In this document: piece by piece, positions 19,841 through 63,605 of the stretch
How positions within the stretch are numbered: position 1 is the first letter of the stretch
Layout: every line of letters starts with the position of its first letter
Assembly (NCBI GenBank): GCA_965248525.1
Contig: CBDFJO010000003.1
Location: forward strand, 41,727 to 105,726
Length of the DNA: 64,000 nt
Reading direction: 5' to 3'
Source: Urechidicola sp.
GTDB taxonomy: Bacteria > Bacteroidota > Bacteroidia > Flavobacteriales > Flavobacteriaceae
The notes under the pieces: generated by a model
Databases searched by the model: none
Told to the model about the DNA's origin: nothing
The model's input: the letters and a program-made list of their open reading frames with translations, nothing else
Translations under genes and position numbers: made by a program

Positions 19841-19902
19841 AATTAATTGTATTTACACTGCAAATGTATAAAAACTCATGATGACTGCAAATTTTTTTTA
19901 TG

Positions 19903-20027
19903 ACTTAAGTTAAATTAGCAAATGTAACTTTTTAAGATTCATTTAGCATATCTATTTTTATCAATATTGGAATTTAAAAAAGTATAAAAATTTGATAATT
20001 ATTGCGTATTGTAGAATTTTATTTATC
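19903..20027. repeat. Conserved array-tail element, copy 1
   Basis: Roughly 80% identical by eye to 50520-50646; both abut the last attC-like site of an array. Confidence 0.75.
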
Positions 20028-20730: not shown

Positions 20731-20810
20731 TTAGTTCAAATAATTGAGAAAGTCAAGTTTTATCAATTCTAAAATTTTATTGAGATAAAGTTGCATTTGC
20801 TAATTGAACT

Positions 20811-21016
20811 TAAAATTTACTAGCAAAACTGTACAAACTAACAAGCAAAGACTTGCTTTTTACTTATATCAAATAAAAGAGGTGATAGTACTTCAAATAA
20901 ACAACTTTAAACCAGCTAAAAATTTAGAATTCACATAAATTTTAAAATAGGTTTTCTCTAAAAATCGCTTATGTCAACTTTTTTGGACTGATTTTATATT
21001 CTTGTGCAACGATTAC
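20811..21016 (+). mobile_element. IS1182-family right-end remnant (~205 bp)
   Basis: Matches the last ~205 bp of the element at 61721-63467; ends cttgtgcaacgattac. Confidence 0.88.
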
Positions 21017-21096
21017 CCGTGTTGTAACCAGTACTTTTCCTAACTATCTTTTTATTCGAGGTGTTGTTGTTAGAATAGTAAAATAATCAATACTAT

Positions 21097-25274: not shown

Positions 25275-25327
25275 AACATATGGATAACCCTATTGTGGTT
25301 ATATTTTATATTCTTGTCAACGATTAC
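25275..25327 (-). other. attI-like head fused to IS1182 terminal remnant
   Basis: aac-atatggataaccctattgtggttatat then tattcttgt(g)caacgattac. Confidence 0.7.
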
Positions 25328-25600
25328 TTGTGTTAGCAAAAGTGCTTATAAATTACAATGTTCAGCTTTCTCTCTTTTTTCTTCTGTAAAACGAAAGGTA
25401 AATTCAAATTCTAGTTCACTGATTTCTTTTCTATTTTCATAGTTTTCAATTTCAGTTAAACCAAGTTCACACTCTGAATTATTACCATAAATAAAAACAC
25501 GACTACCACTAATCTCTACAAATGGATCATAATTATTTATTAAAGGTTTTTTACCGTATTCATAAGCATTAAATAAGCGATTTAAAATTATTTCGGATGT

Positions 25601-26623
25601 TTAAATACCTAAGCTATTAAACAACTCTTTTAATTCCTTCATAGAAGGCCTAGGCGCATTAGGAGTTATGATATTTCCTTTTGGATCGATTAAAATGAAT
25701 CTTGGAATCCCTTCTATCTTATAGTTTTTTATAAACTCAGATTTCCCTGCTTTGTCAGCTAATAATTGAATTCCCCCTAGTTTTTTTTCTTTAATCATCG
25801 TTTTCCATTTGTCATAATCTTTAGGTTTGTCTATAGAAAGACTTACAAACTCAATGTTTTTACCGTGGTAAGCTTTCTCTACTTCTTTTAAGTAAGGAAT
25901 TTCAGCTAGACAAGGACGGCACCAAGTAGCCCAAACATCAATATAGACATACTTTCCTTTTAAATCATCTAAAGAAGTCTTTCCACCAGCATTGTTTTCA
26001 TATGCTATAAATTTTGGAGAGGTTTTTCCTTTTCCTAAAGCAGTTTTTATGTAAGATGCCTTTTCTTGAAGACTTCCTAGATATTTCTTTAATCTGGCAA
26101 ATCCTAATTTCTCGTTTGCAACAAAAGCAGTATCTAAACCAGATACTCCATCAAGGTTTTTCATGAAATCACTTTCAACAGTTTCTAATTTTGCAACGAA
26201 ATTTTCTTTGCTCATCTCAAACATAGTTTTATTTGCAAGAAGAGCCTCTTGGTTTAATATTTTTTTAGCTAAATAGTTATTAGCCTCAGCACCACTTCCA
26301 GTATAAACAATAGTTTCATCAAACTGCTTCGTGTCTAAAGTTAAATGTACATCTTGACCATTTTTAAGGTAAAGATCAGTATCTTCTGTCCCATCGGATA
26401 ACCAAAAACCACCAGTTACTACTTTTAAAGTATCACTAAAAGCACCATCAGTAGCAACAGTAATTCGCTTTTTAAAGTTTCCGTCTGTATCTGATATGAC
26501 TAAGGAGTCAGAATTTTGATTTGTTATTTTTCCTGAAAACGTAACATAGTCCTTAGCCTCTTGTTTACAGGCAACTACTATTAAAGCAGCAATAGTCAAG
26601 TACATTAATTTTTTTATTTTCAT
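25601..26623 (-). CDS. TlpA-family thioredoxin-like lipoprotein, copy 1
   Basis: Lipobox VVAC; WATWCRPC; IPRFILIDPKG. Confidence 0.88.
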   Translation of the reverse strand: MKIKKLMYLTIAALIVVACKQEAKDYVTFSGKITNQNSDSLVISDTDGNFKKRITVATDGAFSDTLKVVTGGFWLSDGTEDTDLYLKNGQDVHLTLDTKQFDETIVYTGSGAEANNYLAKKILNQEALLANKTMFEMSKENFVAKLETVESDFMKNLDGVSGLDTAFVANEKLGFARLKKYLGSLQEKASYIKTALGKGKTSPKFIAYENNAGGKTSLDDLKGKYVYIDVWATWCRPCLAEIPYLKEVEKAYHGKNIEFVSLSIDKPKDYDKWKTMIKEKKLGGIQLLADKAGKSEFIKNYKIEGIPRFILIDPKGNIITPNAPRPSMKELKELFNSLGI

Positions 26624-26666
26624 AATTTTTTGTTTTAAAGGTTAATGTTCATTTTACATTTTTACT

Positions 26667-26720
26667 AACATATGTATAACCCTATTGTGGTTATATTTTA
26701 TATTCTTGTGCAACGATTAC
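26667..26720 (-). other. attI-like head fused to IS1182 terminal remnant
   Basis: aac-atatgtataaccctattgtggttatat then tattcttgtgcaacgattac. Confidence 0.7.
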
Positions 26721-26990
26721 TTGTGTTAGCAAAAGTGCTTATAAATTACAATGTTCAGCTTTCTCTCTTTTTTCTTCTGTAAAACGAAAGGTAAATTCAA
26801 ATTCTAGTTCACTGATTTCTTTTCTATTTTCATAGTTTTCAATTTCAGTTAAACCAAGTTCACACTCTGAATTATTACCATAAATAAAAACACGACTACC
26901 ACTAATCTCTACAAATGGATCATAATTATTTATTAAAGGTTTTTTACCGTATTCATAAGCATTAAATAAGCGATTTAAAATTATTTCGGA

Positions 26991-28013
26991 TTAAATACCT
27001 AAGCTATCAAACAACTCTTTTAATTCCTTCATAGAAGGCCTAGGCGCATTATGAGTTATGATATTTCCTTTTGGATCGATTAAAATGAATCTTGGAATCT
27101 CTTCTATCCTATAGTTTTTTAAAAACTCAGATTTCCCTGTTGTTGTTCTGTCAGCTAATAATTGAATTCCCCCTAGTTTTTTTTCTTTAATCATCGTTTT
27201 CCATTTGTCATGATCTTTAGGTTCGTCTATAGAAAGACTTACAAACTCAATGTTTTTACCGTGGTAAGCTTTCTCTACTTCTTTTAAGTAAGGAATTTCA
27301 GCTAGACAAGGACGGCACCAAGTAGCCCAAATATCAATATAGACATACTTTCCTTTTAAATCATCTAAAGAAGTCTTTCCACCAGCATTGTTTTCATATG
27401 CTATAAATTTTGGAGAGGGTTTTCCTTTTCCTAAAACAGTTTTTATGTAAGATGCCTTTTCTTGAAGAATTCCTAGAAATCTCTTTAATCCGACAAATCC
27501 TAATTTCTCGCTTGCAACAAAAGCAGTATCTAAACCAGATACTCCATCAAGGTTTTTCATAAAATCACTTTCAATAGTTTCTAATTTTGCATCGAAATCT
27601 TCTTTGCTCATCTCAAGCAGAGTTTTATTTGTAAAAAGATCTCCTTGGTTTAATACTTTTTTAGCTAAATAGTTATTAGCCTCAGCACCACTTCCAGTAT
27701 AAACAACAGTTTCATCAAACTGCTTCGTGTCTAAAGTTAAATGTACATCTTGACCATTTTTAAGGTAAAGATTAGTCTGTTCTTTCCCATCTTGTAACCA
27801 AAAACCACCAGTTACTACTTTTAAAGTATCACTAAAAGTACCATCAGCAGCAACAGTAATTCGCTTTTTAAAGGTTCCGAATCCTATGAGTAAGGAGTCA
27901 GAATTTTGATTTGTTATTTTTCCTGAAAACGTAACATAGTCCTTAGCCTCTTGTTTACAGGCAACTACTATTAAAGTAGCAATAGTCAAGTACATTAATT
28001 TTTTCATTTTCAT
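26991..28013 (-). CDS. TlpA-family thioredoxin-like lipoprotein, copy 2
   Basis: Paralog of 25601-26623; WATWCRPC. Confidence 0.88.
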   Translation of the reverse strand: MKMKKLMYLTIATLIVVACKQEAKDYVTFSGKITNQNSDSLLIGFGTFKKRITVAADGTFSDTLKVVTGGFWLQDGKEQTNLYLKNGQDVHLTLDTKQFDETVVYTGSGAEANNYLAKKVLNQGDLFTNKTLLEMSKEDFDAKLETIESDFMKNLDGVSGLDTAFVASEKLGFVGLKRFLGILQEKASYIKTVLGKGKPSPKFIAYENNAGGKTSLDDLKGKYVYIDIWATWCRPCLAEIPYLKEVEKAYHGKNIEFVSLSIDEPKDHDKWKTMIKEKKLGGIQLLADRTTTGKSEFLKNYRIEEIPRFILIDPKGNIITHNAPRPSMKELKELFDSLGI

Positions 28014-28078
28014 AATTTTTTGTTTTAAAGGTTTAAAGGTTAATGTTCAAAGGTTAATGTTCATTTTATATTTTTACT

Positions 28079-50457: not shown

Positions 50458-50519
50458 ATTTTTAGTATTTATTAAGTTTCAAATTTAAGCATTTCATATC
50501 AACTTCATTTTTTAATTTA

Positions 50520-50646
50520 ACTTAAGTTCAATTAGTAAATGCAACTTTTTAGGATACGGTCAGCGTATCTATTTTTATGAATATTGAAGTTCAAAAAAAG
50601 TATAAAAATTTGAGAGCTATTGTGTATTGTAGAATTTTATATTATC
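50520..50646. repeat. Conserved array-tail element, copy 2
   Basis: Homologous to 19903-20027. Confidence 0.75.
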
Positions 50647-51312: not shown

Positions 51313-51393
51313 AATTTTAAAATAGGGTTTCTCTAAAAAAATCGCTTAGGTCAACTTTTTTGGATTGATTTTATATTCTTGTGCAACGATTAC
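51312..51393 (+). mobile_element. IS1182-family right-end remnant (~80 bp)
   Basis: Near-identical to the end of 61721-63467. Confidence 0.88.
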
Positions 51394-51411
51394 CGGTGTT
51401 GGTGGCAGTAT

Positions 51412-55728: not shown

Positions 55729-55779
55729 TGTTTAAATTTATAGTTTAAAAATAAGTATTTAATTTTTCTCATGACCACT

Positions 55780-55899
55780 AACGTTGCCTGTATGGTTAGT
55801 GGCGTTTTAAAATTACTGTACTTTCGGTTAAGCACAAACTTTGTTTTAAGTATTGAACTTTGAACTTAGCACTATGTAGCCATTAACTATACAGATTGT
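55780..55899 (-). other. Long attC-like site, split by the group II intron
   Basis: aac-gttgcc-tgtatggttagtggc...gccattaactataca-gatt-gt|t; homologous to 60766-60887. Confidence 0.82.
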
Positions 55900-56420
55900 G
55901 TGTGCCTTGAATGGTAAATATACTAAAAGTTCTTTAAAAAGAAGTATTTATTTAAGAGAAAGTCCAAAGGGTGTAAGTCCCTTATGCGCAGGAGTAACAT
56001 TTTGAAGCCAAGTAAGTCGCAAGGGTGCTAACTGCGAAGTTATATCTGAAGTAAGCGAGACTACGTTGTCTGAACTGACGAACAGAAACGGGATACGAGG
56101 CATAGTTATTTAGGATAAGTAAGCACACCATTGCAAAGTCCTACGAATACCAAAAGAATAACTATGTAGATTCCGCAGGCTTAGACAAAAGGACATTTAC
56201 CTTACCAAGGGAGGTCTCTGTAATCACGAGATGATATAGCAGAGAAGTCAGCAGAAGTCATAGTACTTGTAGGAAAACGAGCCATAAAACAAATGGAGGT
56301 CTCACAAGCAAGCAAGGACAGAACATTAAACGTTTGCGTGAATTTGAATTCATAGGTTAAACAACGTACAGTAGTATAGGGGACTTCTAAAATTTAATTC
56401 ATTGTTAATCAGATAATTAT

Positions 56421-57503
56421 ATGTATCTTTCGTACTATAATCAAAACTGTAATAAAATGTATAAACCCAGAGGGAAAAAAGGATTATTTGATGAAGAATT
56501 TACAAAAGATCGCTTATCATCAATAGGCAATCCATTAGAAAACATAAGTAAAGTTATTGATTTTGAATTATTTAGAGAATTGCTAGAGCATAAGTTACTC
56601 AACACTAACAAAAAAAGCAATGCAGGAGCAAAACCTTATGACTTGGTAATGATGTTTAAAATATTGATACTTCAACGTTATTATGGTTTAGGAGATAGTC
56701 AAGTTGAATATCAAATATTAGATAGAATGAGTTTTAAAACATTTTTAGGATTAGAGACTGGCGATAAAGTACCAGATGAAAAAACCGTATGGAGTTTTAG
56801 AGAACGTGTAACAAAAACAGGTTTAGTAGAAGAATTATTTGAGCAGTTTACTTTCTTTTTAGAAGAAAAAAAACTCATATTTAATGAAGGACAATTGATT
56901 GATGCCAGTTTTACAGTAGCACCACGCCAAAGAAACACAAGGAAAGAAAACAAGAAAATAAAAGACGGTAAGGGTAATGAATTATGGAATGACAAACCCA
57001 ACAAGAAAAAACATAAAGATATTGATGCACGTTGGACAAAGAAAAATGGTGAAACTTTCTTTGGTTATAAAAATCACGCAAAGGTAGGCACTAAAAGTAA
57101 ATTCATTAACACTTACACAGTAACAGACGCCTCGGTTCACGACTCACAAGCTTTGGATGACTTGCTTACCGAAAAAGATAAAAACCAAGATTTACACGCA
57201 GATAGTGCATACACAGGCAAAGAGCAAGATAAGATTATCAAAAAATATGAAATGAAAAATAAAGTACACGAAAAAGGCTATCATAATAAACCATTGACAG
57301 AGAAACAAAAAGCAAGCAACACTAAAAAATCAAAAATTAGAGCAAGAGTAGAGCATGTATTTGGCTTTATGGAGCAAAGTATGAAAGGTTTAGTTTTAAA
57401 ATCAGTAGGAATTATAAGAGCATCAGGAATAATTGGTTTAATCAACTTAACCTACAATTTATTTAGGTATGAACAAATCAAAAGATTAAACATAACTTAC
57501 TGA
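56421..57503 (+). CDS. IS5-family transposase
   Basis: PDEKTVWSFRE, IDASF, DIDARW, ADSAY, RARVEHVFG; likely start at MYKPRG. Confidence 0.9.
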   Translation: MYLSYYNQNCNKMYKPRGKKGLFDEEFTKDRLSSIGNPLENISKVIDFELFRELLEHKLLNTNKKSNAGAKPYDLVMMFKILILQRYYGLGDSQVEYQILDRMSFKTFLGLETGDKVPDEKTVWSFRERVTKTGLVEELFEQFTFFLEEKKLIFNEGQLIDASFTVAPRQRNTRKENKKIKDGKGNELWNDKPNKKKHKDIDARWTKKNGETFFGYKNHAKVGTKSKFINTYTVTDASVHDSQALDDLLTEKDKNQDLHADSAYTGKEQDKIIKKYEMKNKVHEKGYHNKPLTEKQKASNTKKSKIRARVEHVFGFMEQSMKGLVLKSVGIIRASGIIGLINLTYNLFRYEQIKRLNITY

Positions 57504-57574
57504 TAGACGGATAGATTGGATAGATGGATAGATGGATAGATGGATAGATGGATAGATGGATAGATGGATAGATG
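57502..57574 (+). repeat. 8-bp tandem repeat (GATAGATG) inside IS5
   Basis: 7 perfect copies at 57519-57574 plus 2 degenerate copies. Confidence 0.95.
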
Positions 57575-57756
57575 GAATTTGATGTTTTGTGTATCAAAAT
57601 CAAAAAATATTACTACCTTTGTAGTGTTAATCTTTTTTCTAAAAAAGATAAAAAAGGGTTCTCATCTTTTTTAGAAAACTGAAAAACCAATTTTTAGAAC
57701 TCCCCTATAGTTTAACTTAACGGACAGAGGAGCAATAACAAAGTAACAATTTAATT

Positions 57757-58156
57757 ATGGAATTAATAACAAAAGTTTTAGAGTATTCAAATATCAAGGC
57801 TCACTATTTTTGTACGTGGTTGGGTAAACTATTATAAGTATGCCAATATGACTACAAAGTTAAAATCGTTAGATACTTGGGTTCGTAGTAGGTTGCGTTA
57901 CTGCATTTGGAAACATTGGAAAAAGCCCAACAAACGTATGCGTAGTTATATCCGTTTGGGTATTGCTAAAGGTCAGGCTTATGCTTGGTCACGTTCACGG
58001 ATGGGTGGCTGGGCAACGGCATTAAGCCCAATAATGAAAACCACAATAACAGTCGAAAGACTATTAAAACGTGGTTATCTTTCTTTTTCTGCTCAATTTC
58101 AAATGTCGTTTAGGTTAATACCAAAAGACATTCAATTAAAATTATCTTTTGTTTAA
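57757..58156 (+). pseudogene. Intron-encoded protein with the RT domain deleted
   Basis: MELITKVLEYSNIKA N-terminus, then out-of-frame jump to RGWVNYY...RSRLRYCIWKHWKK (maturase X domain); no YADD. Confidence 0.82.
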
Positions 58157-58248
58157 TGAACCGCCAAGTACGAGAACCGTACGCTTGGTGGTGTGAGAGG
58201 CGCACTCTCCTCAAGATTGAGGAGAGCCGCCTACTCGATTAGCAAACG

Positions 58249-59286
58249 TTATTTTTTATTTTCTTCTATTATCTCTTTTCTTTTTTGAGATATTTCTAAA
58301 TTGTATTTCCACTTTTTATTGTAATCAACATTTTCTCTCATTTTTGCATACTCAATCGCTTTGTCATAATTACCAAGAGCATAATTCACTCCAGAAATAT
58401 TGCTCAATATACTCCAGTAAACCTTTTTTTGTTTTTTATCAGTTTTATCCTTTATTTTTTTTAGTTCGTTTTCAAAATGAGTTAAACTCTCTTTTGCAAT
58501 GCTCTTTAAGTTTTCTTTATAGGTATCGCTAAATTTCAATTTATTCATTTCGATTAATTTTTCAACTTGGTCATTGTTTTTTATTCCAAATTTTTCTTCC
58601 TTTTTAATAAAAAATAAATTTATTCTTTTGGCTTCATAATAAGTAGAAAATTTTGATTTTAAAGATTTAGAAATATCTCCTATTACATAATCTGCTTGGT
58701 TCATGTTTTTACTAGAACGATATTCAATTGCATTTGCATTATACTGCTTTTTGATTTGAGATAATGCTATTCCATTAGATTTTATGGATGCATTATTAAA
58801 AACTTCAGCACTTTCTGTTTTGCTTTTTTGTGTAAAAACTTTATCAAAAAGAATATTTTTTTTGGTGTCTGTTACTACGACCTTAATTGATGAAGATATT
58901 TCAACAATACCTGTATAAGTGTTTTTTGCATCTTTACCATAGTTTTTTTTCTCTTTTACACTTAATATGTGTTTTATACCTAAATCAGTTAATTCTATAA
59001 TGAAATCAGGATTTTCTGATTTTGTAAAACCAGGGATTTTTAATGAACGGTCAATAAGGATCGAAATATTTGTGTTCTTAAATGAAGAAGACTTTTGTTC
59101 TCCGTTTATTATTAATCTTACATTATCACTATTAGAATTTACTTTTACAGCGTAATTTTGATACTCAACAGGTAATTTAATTTCTGGGTAATGTTTTTCT
59201 TCAATATACCAACCTTTATTTTTTGCGTTTTGTGCTGATAAATTGATACTTACTAATGTTAATAGTAATAAAATGAATTTTTTCAT
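58249..59286 (-). CDS. Cassette-borne secreted hypothetical protein (C-terminal TPR-like)
   Basis: Signal peptide MKKFILLLL...SA; ends match gt|tagcaaac and gtttgctaac. Confidence 0.7.
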   Translation of the reverse strand: MKKFILLLLTLVSINLSAQNAKNKGWYIEEKHYPEIKLPVEYQNYAVKVNSNSDNVRLIINGEQKSSSFKNTNISILIDRSLKIPGFTKSENPDFIIELTDLGIKHILSVKEKKNYGKDAKNTYTGIVEISSSIKVVVTDTKKNILFDKVFTQKSKTESAEVFNNASIKSNGIALSQIKKQYNANAIEYRSSKNMNQADYVIGDISKSLKSKFSTYYEAKRINLFFIKKEEKFGIKNNDQVEKLIEMNKLKFSDTYKENLKSIAKESLTHFENELKKIKDKTDKKQKKVYWSILSNISGVNYALGNYDKAIEYAKMRENVDYNKKWKYNLEISQKRKEIIEENKK

Positions 59287-59308
59287 ATTTTTTGTTTTAA
59301 TGTTTGCT

Positions 59309-59357
59309 AACGTATGGATAACCCTATTGTGGTTATATCTTATATGTCTGCAAGTTA
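59309..59357 (-). promoter_or_regulatory. Array head: attI-like site with degenerate promoter box
   Basis: Minus strand taacttg...ataaccacaatagggttatccatac-G|TTAGC; matches 28079, 26667 and 25275. Confidence 0.65.
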
Positions 59358-60596: not shown

Positions 60597-60765
60597 ATGA
60601 CCAAATTATTCTTGTCCATTATTGGGCAAATATACAATTATCATACAGAAATTCAATTCGTTTTTGTAAAAGCAAAATTAGGCTCTTTTGGTTTTTTGAG
60701 CGTTGGCTTTTGTTATTGGCAAAAACCAAATGTGTCTGATGTGGGTGGGCTTCTATATGCCCTAC

Positions 60766-60887
60766 AACGATTTCTGTATGGTTAGTGGCGTTTTAAAGAA
60801 CCGAAATTTTCGGTTTATCACAGAACTTTATTAAAAGAATTGAACTTCAAATTTAGTACTTTGTAGCCATTAACTATACAGATTGTT
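60766..60887 (-). other. Long attC-like site
   Basis: aac-gatttc-tgtatggttagtggc...gccattaactataca-gatt-gtt. Confidence 0.82.
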
Positions 60888-60997
60888 ACAAGCCCTTTAT
60901 TGTATTTCAGTCAACAAGTTAAACTCCATTCGCGTTAGCATCTTTTTCATTTTGATTGATTTTTCCGTTGATTAAGATTTCTGCAAATAGTTATTTA

Positions 60998-61664: not shown

Positions 61665-61720
61665 AACGTTCCGTGTATGGTGTCGTAGCATCCCGAAGGG
61701 TGCTATGCACTATACACATT
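61665..61720 (-). other. attC-like site split by IS1182
   Basis: aac-gttccg-tgtatggtg-tcgtagcatccc/gggtgctatg-cactataca-catt|IS|catt-gtt. Confidence 0.82.
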
Positions 61721-63467
61721 GTGCCTGTTGCACAAGATACAATTAATTTCACAAAAATAATAATAATAAGGTTTTAAATTATTTTGTTAATCCATTGATA
61801 TTAAGTATCTTTATACATGCAAGGAAAGAAAATATACCAAGAAAAGTTGTTTGCTAATTTTCAGTTAAGCGACCGAGTTCCCAAGAACAATTTTTATCGA
61901 AGATTACATAAAGTTTTAGATTTAGACTTTTTGTATAAACTCACAAGACCATTTTATGGAGAGAGTGGACAGGAGAGTATTGATCCTATAGTTTTCTTTA
62001 AACTTTGTTTAGTAGGATATTTAGAAAACATCATAAGCGATCGCAAATTAATCTCTCATTGTGCAATGCGGTTAGATATTTTGTATTTTATAGGTTATGA
62101 TATTGATGAGCCATTACCTTGGCATTCTACCATAAGTCGTACCCGACAATTATATACAGAAGCAGTATTTGAAGAATTTTTTACCAAAGTATTACAAATG
62201 TGTATAAACAAAGGGATGGTTTCTGGTCATACCCAAGCCATAGATTCTGCACCTATAAAAGCCAATGCTTCTATGGATACATTGGAACTAAAAGTACCTG
62301 CCGAAGAACTAGAAGATTATTTACTCAAGGTTCGTCATATTAGCGATGTAGATAAACCCAAGAATACACGTAAAGCAAAAGAGAATAAGGCAAGTAAGGA
62401 GCAACAAACTGTTACTGCAAAGCCAAGTGAATTACAAGCCATAAAAAGCAGAAATAAAAAATGGTCTAAAGACCAGAATTATCGTCCAGGGGCAGGAAAT
62501 AAGGGATCTAAATATACATCCAACAAAACCCATTATAGTCCAACCGATCCAGATGCTCGGATAAGTGTCAAGCCAGGCAAAGCTAGGAAGCTCAACTATA
62601 GTAGTCAACTAAGTGTAGATACGGGTCATCATGTGATAACAGATATTAAAGCCTATCATGCAGATAAAAAAGACAGTCAATGTTTAGAAGATATCACTGT
62701 TCGATTAAAAAAGCGCTTAGATAAAAACGGATTACTTTGGCAAAACATATTGGCAGATACAGGCTATAGTGATGGTAGCAATTATGCCTTTTTAGAAACC
62801 GAAGCCTTAGAAAGTTATATCCCACCACATGGAACTTACAAAGGAGGACCAGAAGGTTTTTTATATGATAAAGAACAAGATTGTTATATATGTCCACAAG
62901 GAAAAACAATACCGTTTAAAAAAGTGTTTAGAGATTATAAAACAGGTACAAAAAAGAAAGAATATAGATGTTCATCACTAATTTGTAAGACTTGCCCTAT
63001 AAAGCAACAATGTTTGGGCAAAACTGCACAAGAAAAGAAGTTTACTGTAACCTATTATCGAGAAGAATATGAACGCAATAACAAAAGAGTAAACTCCAAA
63101 CAAGGACGTTATATGAAATACAAACGCAGTAGTACTGTTGAGCCTGTTTTTGGGACCCTCACTCAATTTATGGGACTCCGTAAAATAAATACGATTGGTA
63201 TTCAACAAGCCAACAAGGTCATGCATATGGCTGCAATTGCTTATAATATCAAGAAATACCTAAAATTCACTAGCAAAACTGTACAAACTAACAAGCAAAG
63301 ACTTGCTTTTTACTTATATCAAATAAAAGAGGCAATAGTACTTCAAATAAGCAACTTTAAACCAGTTAAAAATTTAGAATTTGTATGAATTTTAAAATAG
63401 GGTTTCTCTAAAAAATCGCTTAGGTCAACTTTTTTGGATTGATTTTATATTCTTGTGCAACGATTAC
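61721..63467 (+). mobile_element. IS1182-family element, complete
   Basis: 16-bp imperfect TIR GTgcctGTTGCACAAG / rc GTaatcGTTGCACAAG; 4-bp CATT duplication. Confidence 0.88.
61817..63388 (+). CDS. IS1182-family transposase
   Basis: GQESIDP, PWHSTISR, AIDSAP, TDPDAR, LADTGY, CxxCP..C, RSSTVEPVFG. Confidence 0.9.
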   Translation: MQGKKIYQEKLFANFQLSDRVPKNNFYRRLHKVLDLDFLYKLTRPFYGESGQESIDPIVFFKLCLVGYLENIISDRKLISHCAMRLDILYFIGYDIDEPLPWHSTISRTRQLYTEAVFEEFFTKVLQMCINKGMVSGHTQAIDSAPIKANASMDTLELKVPAEELEDYLLKVRHISDVDKPKNTRKAKENKASKEQQTVTAKPSELQAIKSRNKKWSKDQNYRPGAGNKGSKYTSNKTHYSPTDPDARISVKPGKARKLNYSSQLSVDTGHHVITDIKAYHADKKDSQCLEDITVRLKKRLDKNGLLWQNILADTGYSDGSNYAFLETEALESYIPPHGTYKGGPEGFLYDKEQDCYICPQGKTIPFKKVFRDYKTGTKKKEYRCSSLICKTCPIKQQCLGKTAQEKKFTVTYYREEYERNNKRVNSKQGRYMKYKRSSTVEPVFGTLTQFMGLRKINTIGIQQANKVMHMAAIAYNIKKYLKFTSKTVQTNKQRLAFYLYQIKEAIVLQISNFKPVKNLEFV

Positions 63468-63605
63468 CATTGTTGTGTTTTCGTTTTTTATTTTCATTTC
63501 GTTTTAACGTTGGGGCAAACATACTCTTTGGCAAGTTTTGGCTCGTGTGGTTGGTTTTTGAGCGACTTGACAATGTGTATGGTTGCTGGGTGATGGAATT
63601 CATCT

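Follow-up and report, generated by a model that had tools for sequence, protein, structure and literature searches.

A 64,000-nucleotide stretch of a Urechidicola sp. genome (Bacteroidota; Flavobacteriaceae; contig CBDFJO010000003.1 of assembly GCA_965248525.1, positions 41,727 to 105,726 of the forward strand; hereafter the window) contains the remains of a mobile group IIC intron, which probably retrohomed into an attC-like site and belongs to a clade found almost only in Bacteroidota and distinct from the classical lineage of introns inserted in integron attC sites (IIC-attC introns). The attC-like status of the target rests on the pattern of insertion sites across the whole intron family and on the complementarity of cassette ends, and not on the single insertion in the window. 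The intron and the parts of its site are listed below, with position 1 being the first letter of the window; a slash within a motif marks the insertion or recombination point.

55775..55899, + strand: 5′ exon, the larger part of an attC-like site (bottom strand), from sequence, DNA fold and a homologous empty site.
55900..58239, + strand: group IIC intron, degenerate copy, 2340 nt, from its GTGTG...CGAT ends, Rfam matches and blastn to relatives at loci L006, L040 and L004.
56028..56319, + strand: ribozyme domain I core to domain III/IV region, from RF02001 and RF01998.
56123..56130, + strand: terminal loop of domain I, GCACACCA, with exon-binding site 1 (EBS1); the partner of TGT in the 5′ exon is ACA, at 56125-56127.
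56380..57705, + strand: IS5-family insertion sequence (IS) in intron domain IV, 1326 bp, with Pfam matches DDE_Tnp_1 and DUF772.
57758..58156, + strand: remnant of the gene for the intron-encoded protein (IEP), from translations, a GIIM match, homologues and blastn deletion limits.
58160..58192, + strand: domain V, from sequence and RNAalifold; its CGC triad is at 58162-58164, and the helix contains a G.U pair and a bulge of 2 nt.
58196..58239, + strand: domain VI, up to the intron 3′ end (CGAT); the A at 58233 is a candidate for the bulged branch point.
58240..58248, + strand: start of the 3′ exon, TAGCAAACG, the remainder of the R'' box on the bottom strand; its first T is intron-binding site (IBS) 3.
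58249..59286, - strand: cassette open reading frame (ORF) of 345 aa, from the ORF list.
59302..59311, + strand: cassette start GTTTGCTAAC, perfectly complementary over 10 nt to the interrupted core; the next hairpin comes after it.
60757..60895, + strand: uninterrupted homologous attC-like site (direct repeats D14 and D15), with the core ATTGT/TACAAG at 60883-60893.

The identification of the intron is far above chance level. An Rfam scan of the whole window at gathering thresholds returned a single match, to RF02001 (group-II-D1D4-3; 56028-56200, 108.3 bits, E 3e-21), and a permissive scan added RF01998 (56220-56319, 38.9 bits). The element opens at 55900 with GTGTGCCTTGAATGG and closes at 58239 with ...GCCGCCTACTCGAT, so that its GTGTG and CGAT ends agree with the GUGYG and AY boundaries of group II introns, and a group II intron thus lies where the original prediction, made from the sequence alone, had placed one. 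The CGC triad that it had also named is present at 58162-58164. Domains V and VI were checked through covariation within the family: among 43 relatives aligned with RNAalifold, the domain V helix comprises 13 conserved pairs, four of them with compensatory changes, and the domain VI helix seven pairs, all with compensatory changes. Every one of these pairs is preserved in the window copy.

The class C assignment, likewise proposed before, is well supported, both by the RNA model that the window copy has in common with verified IIC-attC introns (RF02001, which matches these with 132-135 bits) and by the IEP of a full-length relative. The best match of the L006 protein (438 aa) in the PDB is the GsI-IIC reverse transcriptase (RT; 8.6e-122), followed by the IIC RTs of E. 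rectale and R. intestinalis (1e-108 to 1e-84), with far weaker matches to LtrA of class IIA (3e-39) and TeI4h of class IIB (1.5e-31). This IEP lacks an endonuclease domain and stops soon after domain X; the class C arrangement of RT and X without endonuclease was read from full-length relatives, the window copy holding fragments only.

Removal of 55900-58239 in silico yields ...CTATACAGATTGT/TAGCAAAC, the arrangement that had been predicted and the one found in the uninterrupted homologue at 60757-60895, which shares 71-86% identity with the 5′ exon and has the sequence ...CTATACAGATTGT/TACAAGCC (...CTATACAGATTGTTACAAG). The insertion site is CAGATTGT/TAGCAAAC, that is, TTGT/T on the strand opposite the cassette ORFs, and falls within the R'' box of an AAC...GTT hairpin of about 125 nt, on its bottom strand. 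The stop codon of the 345-aa cassette ORF, which has no Pfam match, is 9 nt from the 3′ end of the intron and antisense to it, so the claim of an insertion antisense to the cassettes was borne out. Within the 5′ exon we distinguished the R box CTAAC (55778-55782), an L-box arm CCTGTATGGTTAGTGGC (55787-55803) and the opposing arm GTAGCCATTAACTATACAG (55877-55895); IBS1, TTGT at 55896-55899, sits at the 3′ base of the resulting stem-loop (55778-55895). An insertion in or directly next to a stem-loop, with a short IBS1 (3-5 nt) and no IBS2, is what characterises class IIC.

When the target is restored and folded as DNA, CTAAC pairs with GTTAG; next come an asymmetric unpaired spacer, arms of 16 bp whose G.T wobbles would become A.C mismatches on the opposite strand, and a central part that varies. 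The empty homologue has a fold z-score of -3.8, and shorter sites at 53.08, 54.26 and 61.67 kb have z-scores of -3.9 to -4.8, each with one unpaired base in one arm. The folds of five window sites show the palindrome of an attC site, with R''/R' boxes, L-box and unpaired spacer. The cassette start GTTTGCTAAC at 59302-59311 is the exact reverse complement (10/10) of the restored core GT/TAGCAAAC (GTTAGCAAAC), as the original prediction had noticed. Read in the direction of the gene, on the minus strand, the unit runs G/TTAGCAAAC - ORF 59286 to 58249 - stop - GTTTGCTA^AC - hairpin - G/TT, where ^ is the intron. From about 50.6 kb to the end of the window the genes are small and unrelated to each other, and every one is encoded by the minus strand; their products include a YhcG nuclease, a ClpP-like protease, a DUF6804 protein, a radical SAM protein, a pair of helix-turn-helix and ORF6N proteins and an outer-membrane barrel, and on the + strand the hairpins between them have AAC as their left and (A)TTGTT as their right boundary.

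This is the geometry of IIC-attC introns, which insert in the bottom strand of attC at R'', with the consensus TTGT/T and opposite to cassette transcription (PMC7923331, PMC3001079). Introns of class 1 integrons that we examined as controls are arranged in the same way, as CTAACgcttgag...cttgaacgaaTTGT/intron/TAGACA-TTA (aadA1 stop) and ...GAACGAATTGT/intron/TAGACA-TTA (aadA1 stop), so that both published descriptions and known examples match the window site.

The pairing of EBS1 with IBS1, proposed for verification, held in part: three pairs between ACA of the loop and TGT of the 5′ exon were found, and at the fourth position the window copy has a mismatch. The same loop of the model reads GCACAAGA (ACAA) in classical IIC-attC introns and GCACAUCA in most members of the family, where ACA is almost invariant and complementary to the almost invariant TGT of the 5′ exon. 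In a Saprospiraceae group of introns with an ACUU loop, two of four sites end in AAGT. An alternative EBS1, ACAA at 56185-56188, was rejected because its position is unconserved in the family alignment.

Any suitable stem-loop can precede the insertion of a IIC intron in general (PMC3001079), and the single insertion, which had been taken as evidence that the hairpins are attC-like, by itself shows a stem-loop only; support for that part of the claim came from the target pattern of the family and from the complementarity of cassette ends. A degenerate-pattern scan of one genome per species gave at least 561 loci encoding relatives of the IEP remnant, the best 79 of which were analysed, with intron ends placed by conserved termini. 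Searches with the 119-aa IEP remnant gave only fragments of up to 205 aa, and full-length IEPs were taken from the genome loci. The best 79 loci are almost all from Bacteroidota, among them Tenacibaculum (92%), Maribacter, Aquimarina, Marinifilum, Prolixibacteraceae, Saprospiraceae and Cyclobacteriaceae; a few are contigs of metagenome-assembled genomes with other taxon labels.

The tabulation of insertion sites that had been called for showed 5′ exons ending mostly in TGT (TTGT in 37 of 65 sites, GTGT in 12, ATGT in 8, AAGT in 4 and CTGT in 3) and a 3′ exon that begins with T in 48/52. With 10 nt of the 3′ exon included in the fold, an AAC further upstream is the partner of GT/T in 35 of 47 sites; when minimum free energy folds included a single nucleotide of the 3′ exon, the terminal GTT of most sites did not pair, and these uninformative folds were dropped. 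The spans from AAC to GT/T fall into two size classes, as in attC, of 114-124 nt (24 sites) and 54-56 nt (4 sites). A 7-mer R-box match within the same hairpin was weakly enriched (38% with at most one mismatch, versus 23% in controls), because in arrays only AAC and GTT belong to the same site.

The complementarity of cassette ends was more telling. For a 10-mer made of GT and the first 8 nt of the 3′ exon, a perfect reverse complement lies 0.2-3 kb downstream in 30/67 sites and a complement with one mismatch in 19 more, 49/67 in all (73%). When cores were swapped between loci, a perfect complement within 3.5 kb was found in 0.5% and one with a single mismatch in 8% (8.5% together). In the matches inspected, the complement directly precedes AAC-G and the next hairpin. 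Such a signature is predicted by cassette recombination at G/TT and not by terminators. An antisense ORF of at least 50 aa has its stop codon within 80 nt of the intron 3′ end in 46/67 sites, versus 24% of random positions, with a mode of 9 nt. Copies of the family thus do not sit mainly after ordinary terminators, the finding that would have spoken against the prediction; the relatives lie in AAC...GTT hairpins with complementary cassette ends.

Some relatives are compact derivatives without an ORF (L038 1123-1790, L065 6318-6985, L058 3920-4464 and L002 6003-6458). Two of them, from separate genera (Marinifilum and Draconibacterium), share a length of 668 nt, which suggests a lineage of non-autonomous derivatives mobilised in trans. 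At three loci a second intron copy begins directly at the 3′ end of another (...CTACTCGAT/GTGTG...; L034 4410/4411, L064 1877/1878, L045 4415); tandem copies, and truncated copies in arrays without a nearby integrase, have been reported for IIC-attC introns (PMC3001079, PMC7923331). Locus L003 (1-16489, on a 1.15-Mb contig) is a long minus-strand array with genes for ParE, PIN, UPF0175, DUF3368, SnoaL, a globin and others, and holds two antisense copies of the intron family, of which the one examined has an internally deleted IEP.

We placed the full-length IEPs in a neighbour-joining tree (about 410 columns, 200 bootstraps) with five verified plasmid introns borne by integrons and 15 other IIC IEPs; the integron-borne introns, found by tblastn, adjoin blaIMP-4, arr-2/qacEdelta1, aadA1, dfrA14/qacEdelta1 and a Shewanella intI. 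The Bacteroidota IEPs, including Adhaeribacter and Chryseobacterium plasmid copies, formed a clade with 100% bootstrap support, as did the classical IIC-attC IEPs, and the two clades were exclusive sisters in 0/200 replicates. The nearest neighbours of the Bacteroidota clade were the Roseburia and B. thuringiensis IIC introns (157/200 replicates), so that, in this tree with plasmid-derived references only, Firmicutes IIC IEPs intervene and no monophyletic IIC-attC subclade includes the window family. The phylogenetic placement of the RT, suggested as a check, thus returned a separate class C clade, in support of the conjecture of a Bacteroidota lineage.

That the window intron is instead an ordinary member of the IIC-attC lineage, of the S.ma.I2 or Kl.pn.I3 type, transferred horizontally into Bacteroidota, is the strongest of the alternatives and still an unlikely one. 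It would account for the identical target core TTGT/T, strand, R'' position and orientation (PMC7923331), for the match to the same Rfam model and for the similar first ~20 nt (GTGTGCCCAGCATGGGCAT versus GTACGCCCAGCATGGGCAT). The proteins speak otherwise: identity to the five integron-borne IIC-attC IEPs is just 39-42%, no higher than to Firmicutes IIC IEPs (40-45%), and the clades never became exclusive sisters in 200 bootstraps, added taxa included. The ribozyme does as well, since its domain V-VI region and 3′ end are of the type of Firmicutes and Microscilla IIC introns (...GGTGGTGTGAGAGG...CTACTCGAT) and not of the classical attC type (GGTGGTGTGGGGGC...CTACCCGAT; ...GGTGTGGGGGC...CTACCCGAT), and its family has EBS1 loops with ACAU or ACAC, not ACAA. 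The window intron therefore behaves like an IIC-attC intron but falls outside the IIC-attC clade, as judged by neighbour joining with limited, plasmid-derived references.

The known introns of the two kinds bring out this mixture of characters. With S.ma.I2, E.c.I7, Kl.pn.I1 and Kl.pn.I3, the IIC-attC introns described by Quiroga, Leon, Roy and Centron, the window family shares a class C ribozyme, an IEP without endonuclease domain and antisense insertion into the bottom-strand R'' at TTGT/T, a few nt past a cassette stop codon. It differs from them in its separate IEP clade (39-42% identity, 0/200 as sister), in its Firmicutes-type domains V and VI and 3′ end, in an EBS1 of ACA(U/C), in its hosts, which are Bacteroidota and not Proteobacteria, and in target arrays whose recombinase lacks the IntI-specific domain. 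Terminator-homing IIC introns (GsI-IIC and those of B. thuringiensis, E. faecium, Roseburia and Microscilla pSD15) come nearest to the clade in IEP sequence (43-46% identity in the alignment, and as much as 49% in tblastn matches) and have almost identical domain V and 3′ end motifs, but they sit after a GC-rich hairpin and a T-run (TTTTTATT/, TTTTGTT/, TTTCTTT/), not at an AAC...GTT site.

The copy in the window is dead and cannot move by itself, because of an IS insertion and a deletion in its RT gene, both of which the original prediction had overlooked. The IS5-family element has a transposase ORF at 56421-57503 and terminal inverted repeats GGGGAcTTCTAAAA, and TATAG flanks it on both sides (56375-56379 and 57706-57710); in the relative L006, which has no such insertion, the alignment across the junction contains these 5 nt once. 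Directly after the transposase stop, still within the element, an 8-bp tandem repeat, GGATAGAT, is present in about nine copies (57509-57584). Without the IS the intron would be about 1.0 kb long, and full-length relatives measure 1.84-2.0 kb. Of the IEP gene, an ATG at 57758 opens MELITKVLEYSNIKA, leaving about 15 N-terminal codons (the L006 IEP starts MELITKVLDYSN); an internal deletion of about 0.9 kb follows, with its junction at 57790-57797 by blastn, and the C-terminal X/thumb part (57790-58156, RGWVNYYKY...SFV*) is in a different frame.

We also considered that the copy still works as an ORF-less intron mobilised in trans, which we regard as improbable, slightly more so than descent from the IIC-attC lineage. 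Its domain I core and domains V and VI look intact, domain V having lineage-specific compensatory pairs, and the ORF-less 668-nt relatives in two genomes suggest that derivatives mobilised in trans exist. Against this, a 1.33-kb IS with its own transposase gene occupies domain IV, the IEP remnant is frameshifted, and no intact IEP gene was found in the 64-kb window.

Retrohoming followed by decay, the reading we favour, would have begun with an intron ribonucleoprotein recognising the folded bottom strand, probably single-stranded at replication. By analogy with established IIC biology, the stem-loop would have been used in place of IBS2, together with a T at +1 and the pairing of a 3-4 nt IBS1 (TTGT) with EBS1 (ACA(N)) in a terminal loop of domain I. 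The IS5-family insertion in domain IV and the loss of about 0.9 kb of the RT gene came later. The 345-aa cassette was probably fixed in place by the insertion, since 2.3 kb now separates R'' from the rest of the hairpin.

The arrays themselves were compared with integrons. In at least 12 related loci a gene for an IntI-like recombinase of about 380 aa, 26-33% identical to IntI1, adjoins the array on the cassette strand, and in the five loci checked its stop codon lies 45-80 nt upstream of the first cassette boundary. Six of these genes are as follows.

L082, 5116-6267: IntI-like recombinase gene.
L031, 4998-6164: IntI-like recombinase gene.
L039, 6737-7879: IntI-like recombinase gene.
L074, 6176-7360: IntI-like recombinase gene.
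L051, 7183-8289: IntI-like recombinase gene.
L025, 2177-3316: IntI-like recombinase gene.

The protein has an N-terminal extension of about 110 aa and scores 236 bits on NF040815 ('XerA/integron integrase', cut-off 220); judged from such matches, it is a candidate non-canonical integron integrase. Like integron attC sites and those of CALINs (clusters of attC sites lacking an integron integrase), the hairpins are imperfect palindromes: their R boxes are AAC and GTT, a spacer stays unpaired, wobble or extrahelical bases occur in the L-box arms, and the central part varies; they measure about 60 or about 125 nt, a cassette start complements its own R'', and the small, promoterless-looking genes lie on one strand. 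Unlike integrons, the arrays have no canonical IntI, and the recombinase of the relatives is co-oriented with the cassettes and lacks the segment matching IntI1 residues ~209-249.

Several points weigh against our interpretation. No tyrosine recombinase or integrase was found among the Pfam-screened ORFs of the window, and the array here can therefore be no more than a CALIN-like cluster or a distal portion of some longer array; an adjacent IntI proper was found neither in the window nor in the relatives. The IntI-like recombinase reaches 219 bits on the integron integrase model TIGR02249 (cut-off 265), with a match split in two, and the residues it lacks (~209-249 of IntI1) are the IntI-specific domain, so that 'attC' is used here by analogy. 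About a quarter of the related sites have no cassette-end complement, and at least one of them, the compact derivative L002, is flanked by housekeeping genes, for methylmalonyl-CoA mutase and an S41 peptidase; such a minority is consistent with the residual use of other stem-loops reported for attC-homing introns. As to the intron, the Rfam model of domains V and VI (RF00029) found no match in the window even at E<=1, only 3 bp of the EBS1/IBS1 pairing are firmly supported, with weak covariation and a variable fourth position (C opposite T in the window copy), and the tree was built by neighbour joining with about 20 non-Bacteroidota references, all from plasmids.

The weakest alternative, that the hairpins are ordinary transcription terminators or repetitive extragenic palindromic (REP)-like repeats whose likeness to attC is coincidental and that the intron is terminator-homing, would fit the use of any suitable stem-loop by IIC introns (PMC3001079), copies whose sites do not clearly look like cassettes, L002 among them, and the lack of an integrase in the window, yet is very improbable in view of sites bounded by AAC...GTT without a T-run, two discrete size classes (~56 and ~120 nt), unit ends complementary over 10 nt in 73% of sites at one mismatch or fewer versus 8.5% of controls, arrays of small unrelated same-strand genes that include toxin-antitoxin pairs, IntI-like recombinase genes abutting the arrays in at least 12 related loci, and a tandem cassette duplication at 25.3-28.0 kb in the window.

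The interest of these observations lies mainly in the family-level pattern and in what it implies for integron-like arrays in Bacteroidota. The attC-homing IIC introns have so far constituted one monophyletic lineage, with hosts almost all Proteobacteria and tied to classical integrons. The data support a second, phylogenetically separate and phylum-wide attC-homing clade in Bacteroidota with the same target geometry, in which case homing to folded recombination sites would have evolved repeatedly or be much older than thought; the separate clades suggest an independent origin of attC homing. They also give independent, biology-based support to the view that the AAC...GTT hairpins bounding small genes in Bacteroidota act as attC-like structures in single-stranded form. 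In published surveys, Salinibacter is essentially the one exception to the absence of integrons from Bacteroidetes (PMC9024848), and in our full-text search of the literature a mention as outgroup was all that connected group II introns and attC with Bacteroidetes. The integron-like system is under-described. We would go further only at even odds, to propose that Flavobacteriia, Bacteroidia, Saprospiria and Cytophagia have a widespread, largely unannotated integron-like system together with a IIC clade convergently specialised on its R'' core. The components of this system may be the AAC...GTT attC-like hairpins and a co-oriented Xer/IntI-like recombinase with the ~110-aa N-terminal extension and without the IntI-specific domain. 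If so, the introns would be natural markers of such arrays, which could be located through the conserved intron ends, and full-length relatives, such as that of Maribacter halichondriae, are candidates for studying how IIC introns read DNA structure.

The window has two cassette arrays, at about 20.0-28.2 kb and about 50.6-64 kb, in which we made some further observations. At the left (cassette-distal) edge of both are ~130-nt segments (19892-20022 and 50509-50640) that are 81-91% identical and have no Rfam match; a 27-nt piece of this segment recurs inverted at 20787-20813, beside a truncated IS fragment. An IS1182-like element (61723-63467, with an ORF at 61817-63388 matching DUF772 and DDE_Tnp_1_6) lies within 61717-63473, flanked by the 6-bp direct repeat CATTGT, and its removal restores the attC-like core ...CTATACACATTGT/TGTGTTTTCG, the core targeted by the intron family. 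Solo right-end fragments of this element adjoin similar cores at 20808-21025 and 51314-51402, with short end-like pieces at 25290 and 26682. Because the element and its fragments sit at similar cores, it may have a site preference for these hairpins. Finally, a unit of about 1.39 kb, comprising a 340-aa thioredoxin/AhpC-like gene and a flanking hairpin, is present as a tandem duplicate at 25318-28040 with 97-100% identity and looks like a duplicated cassette.

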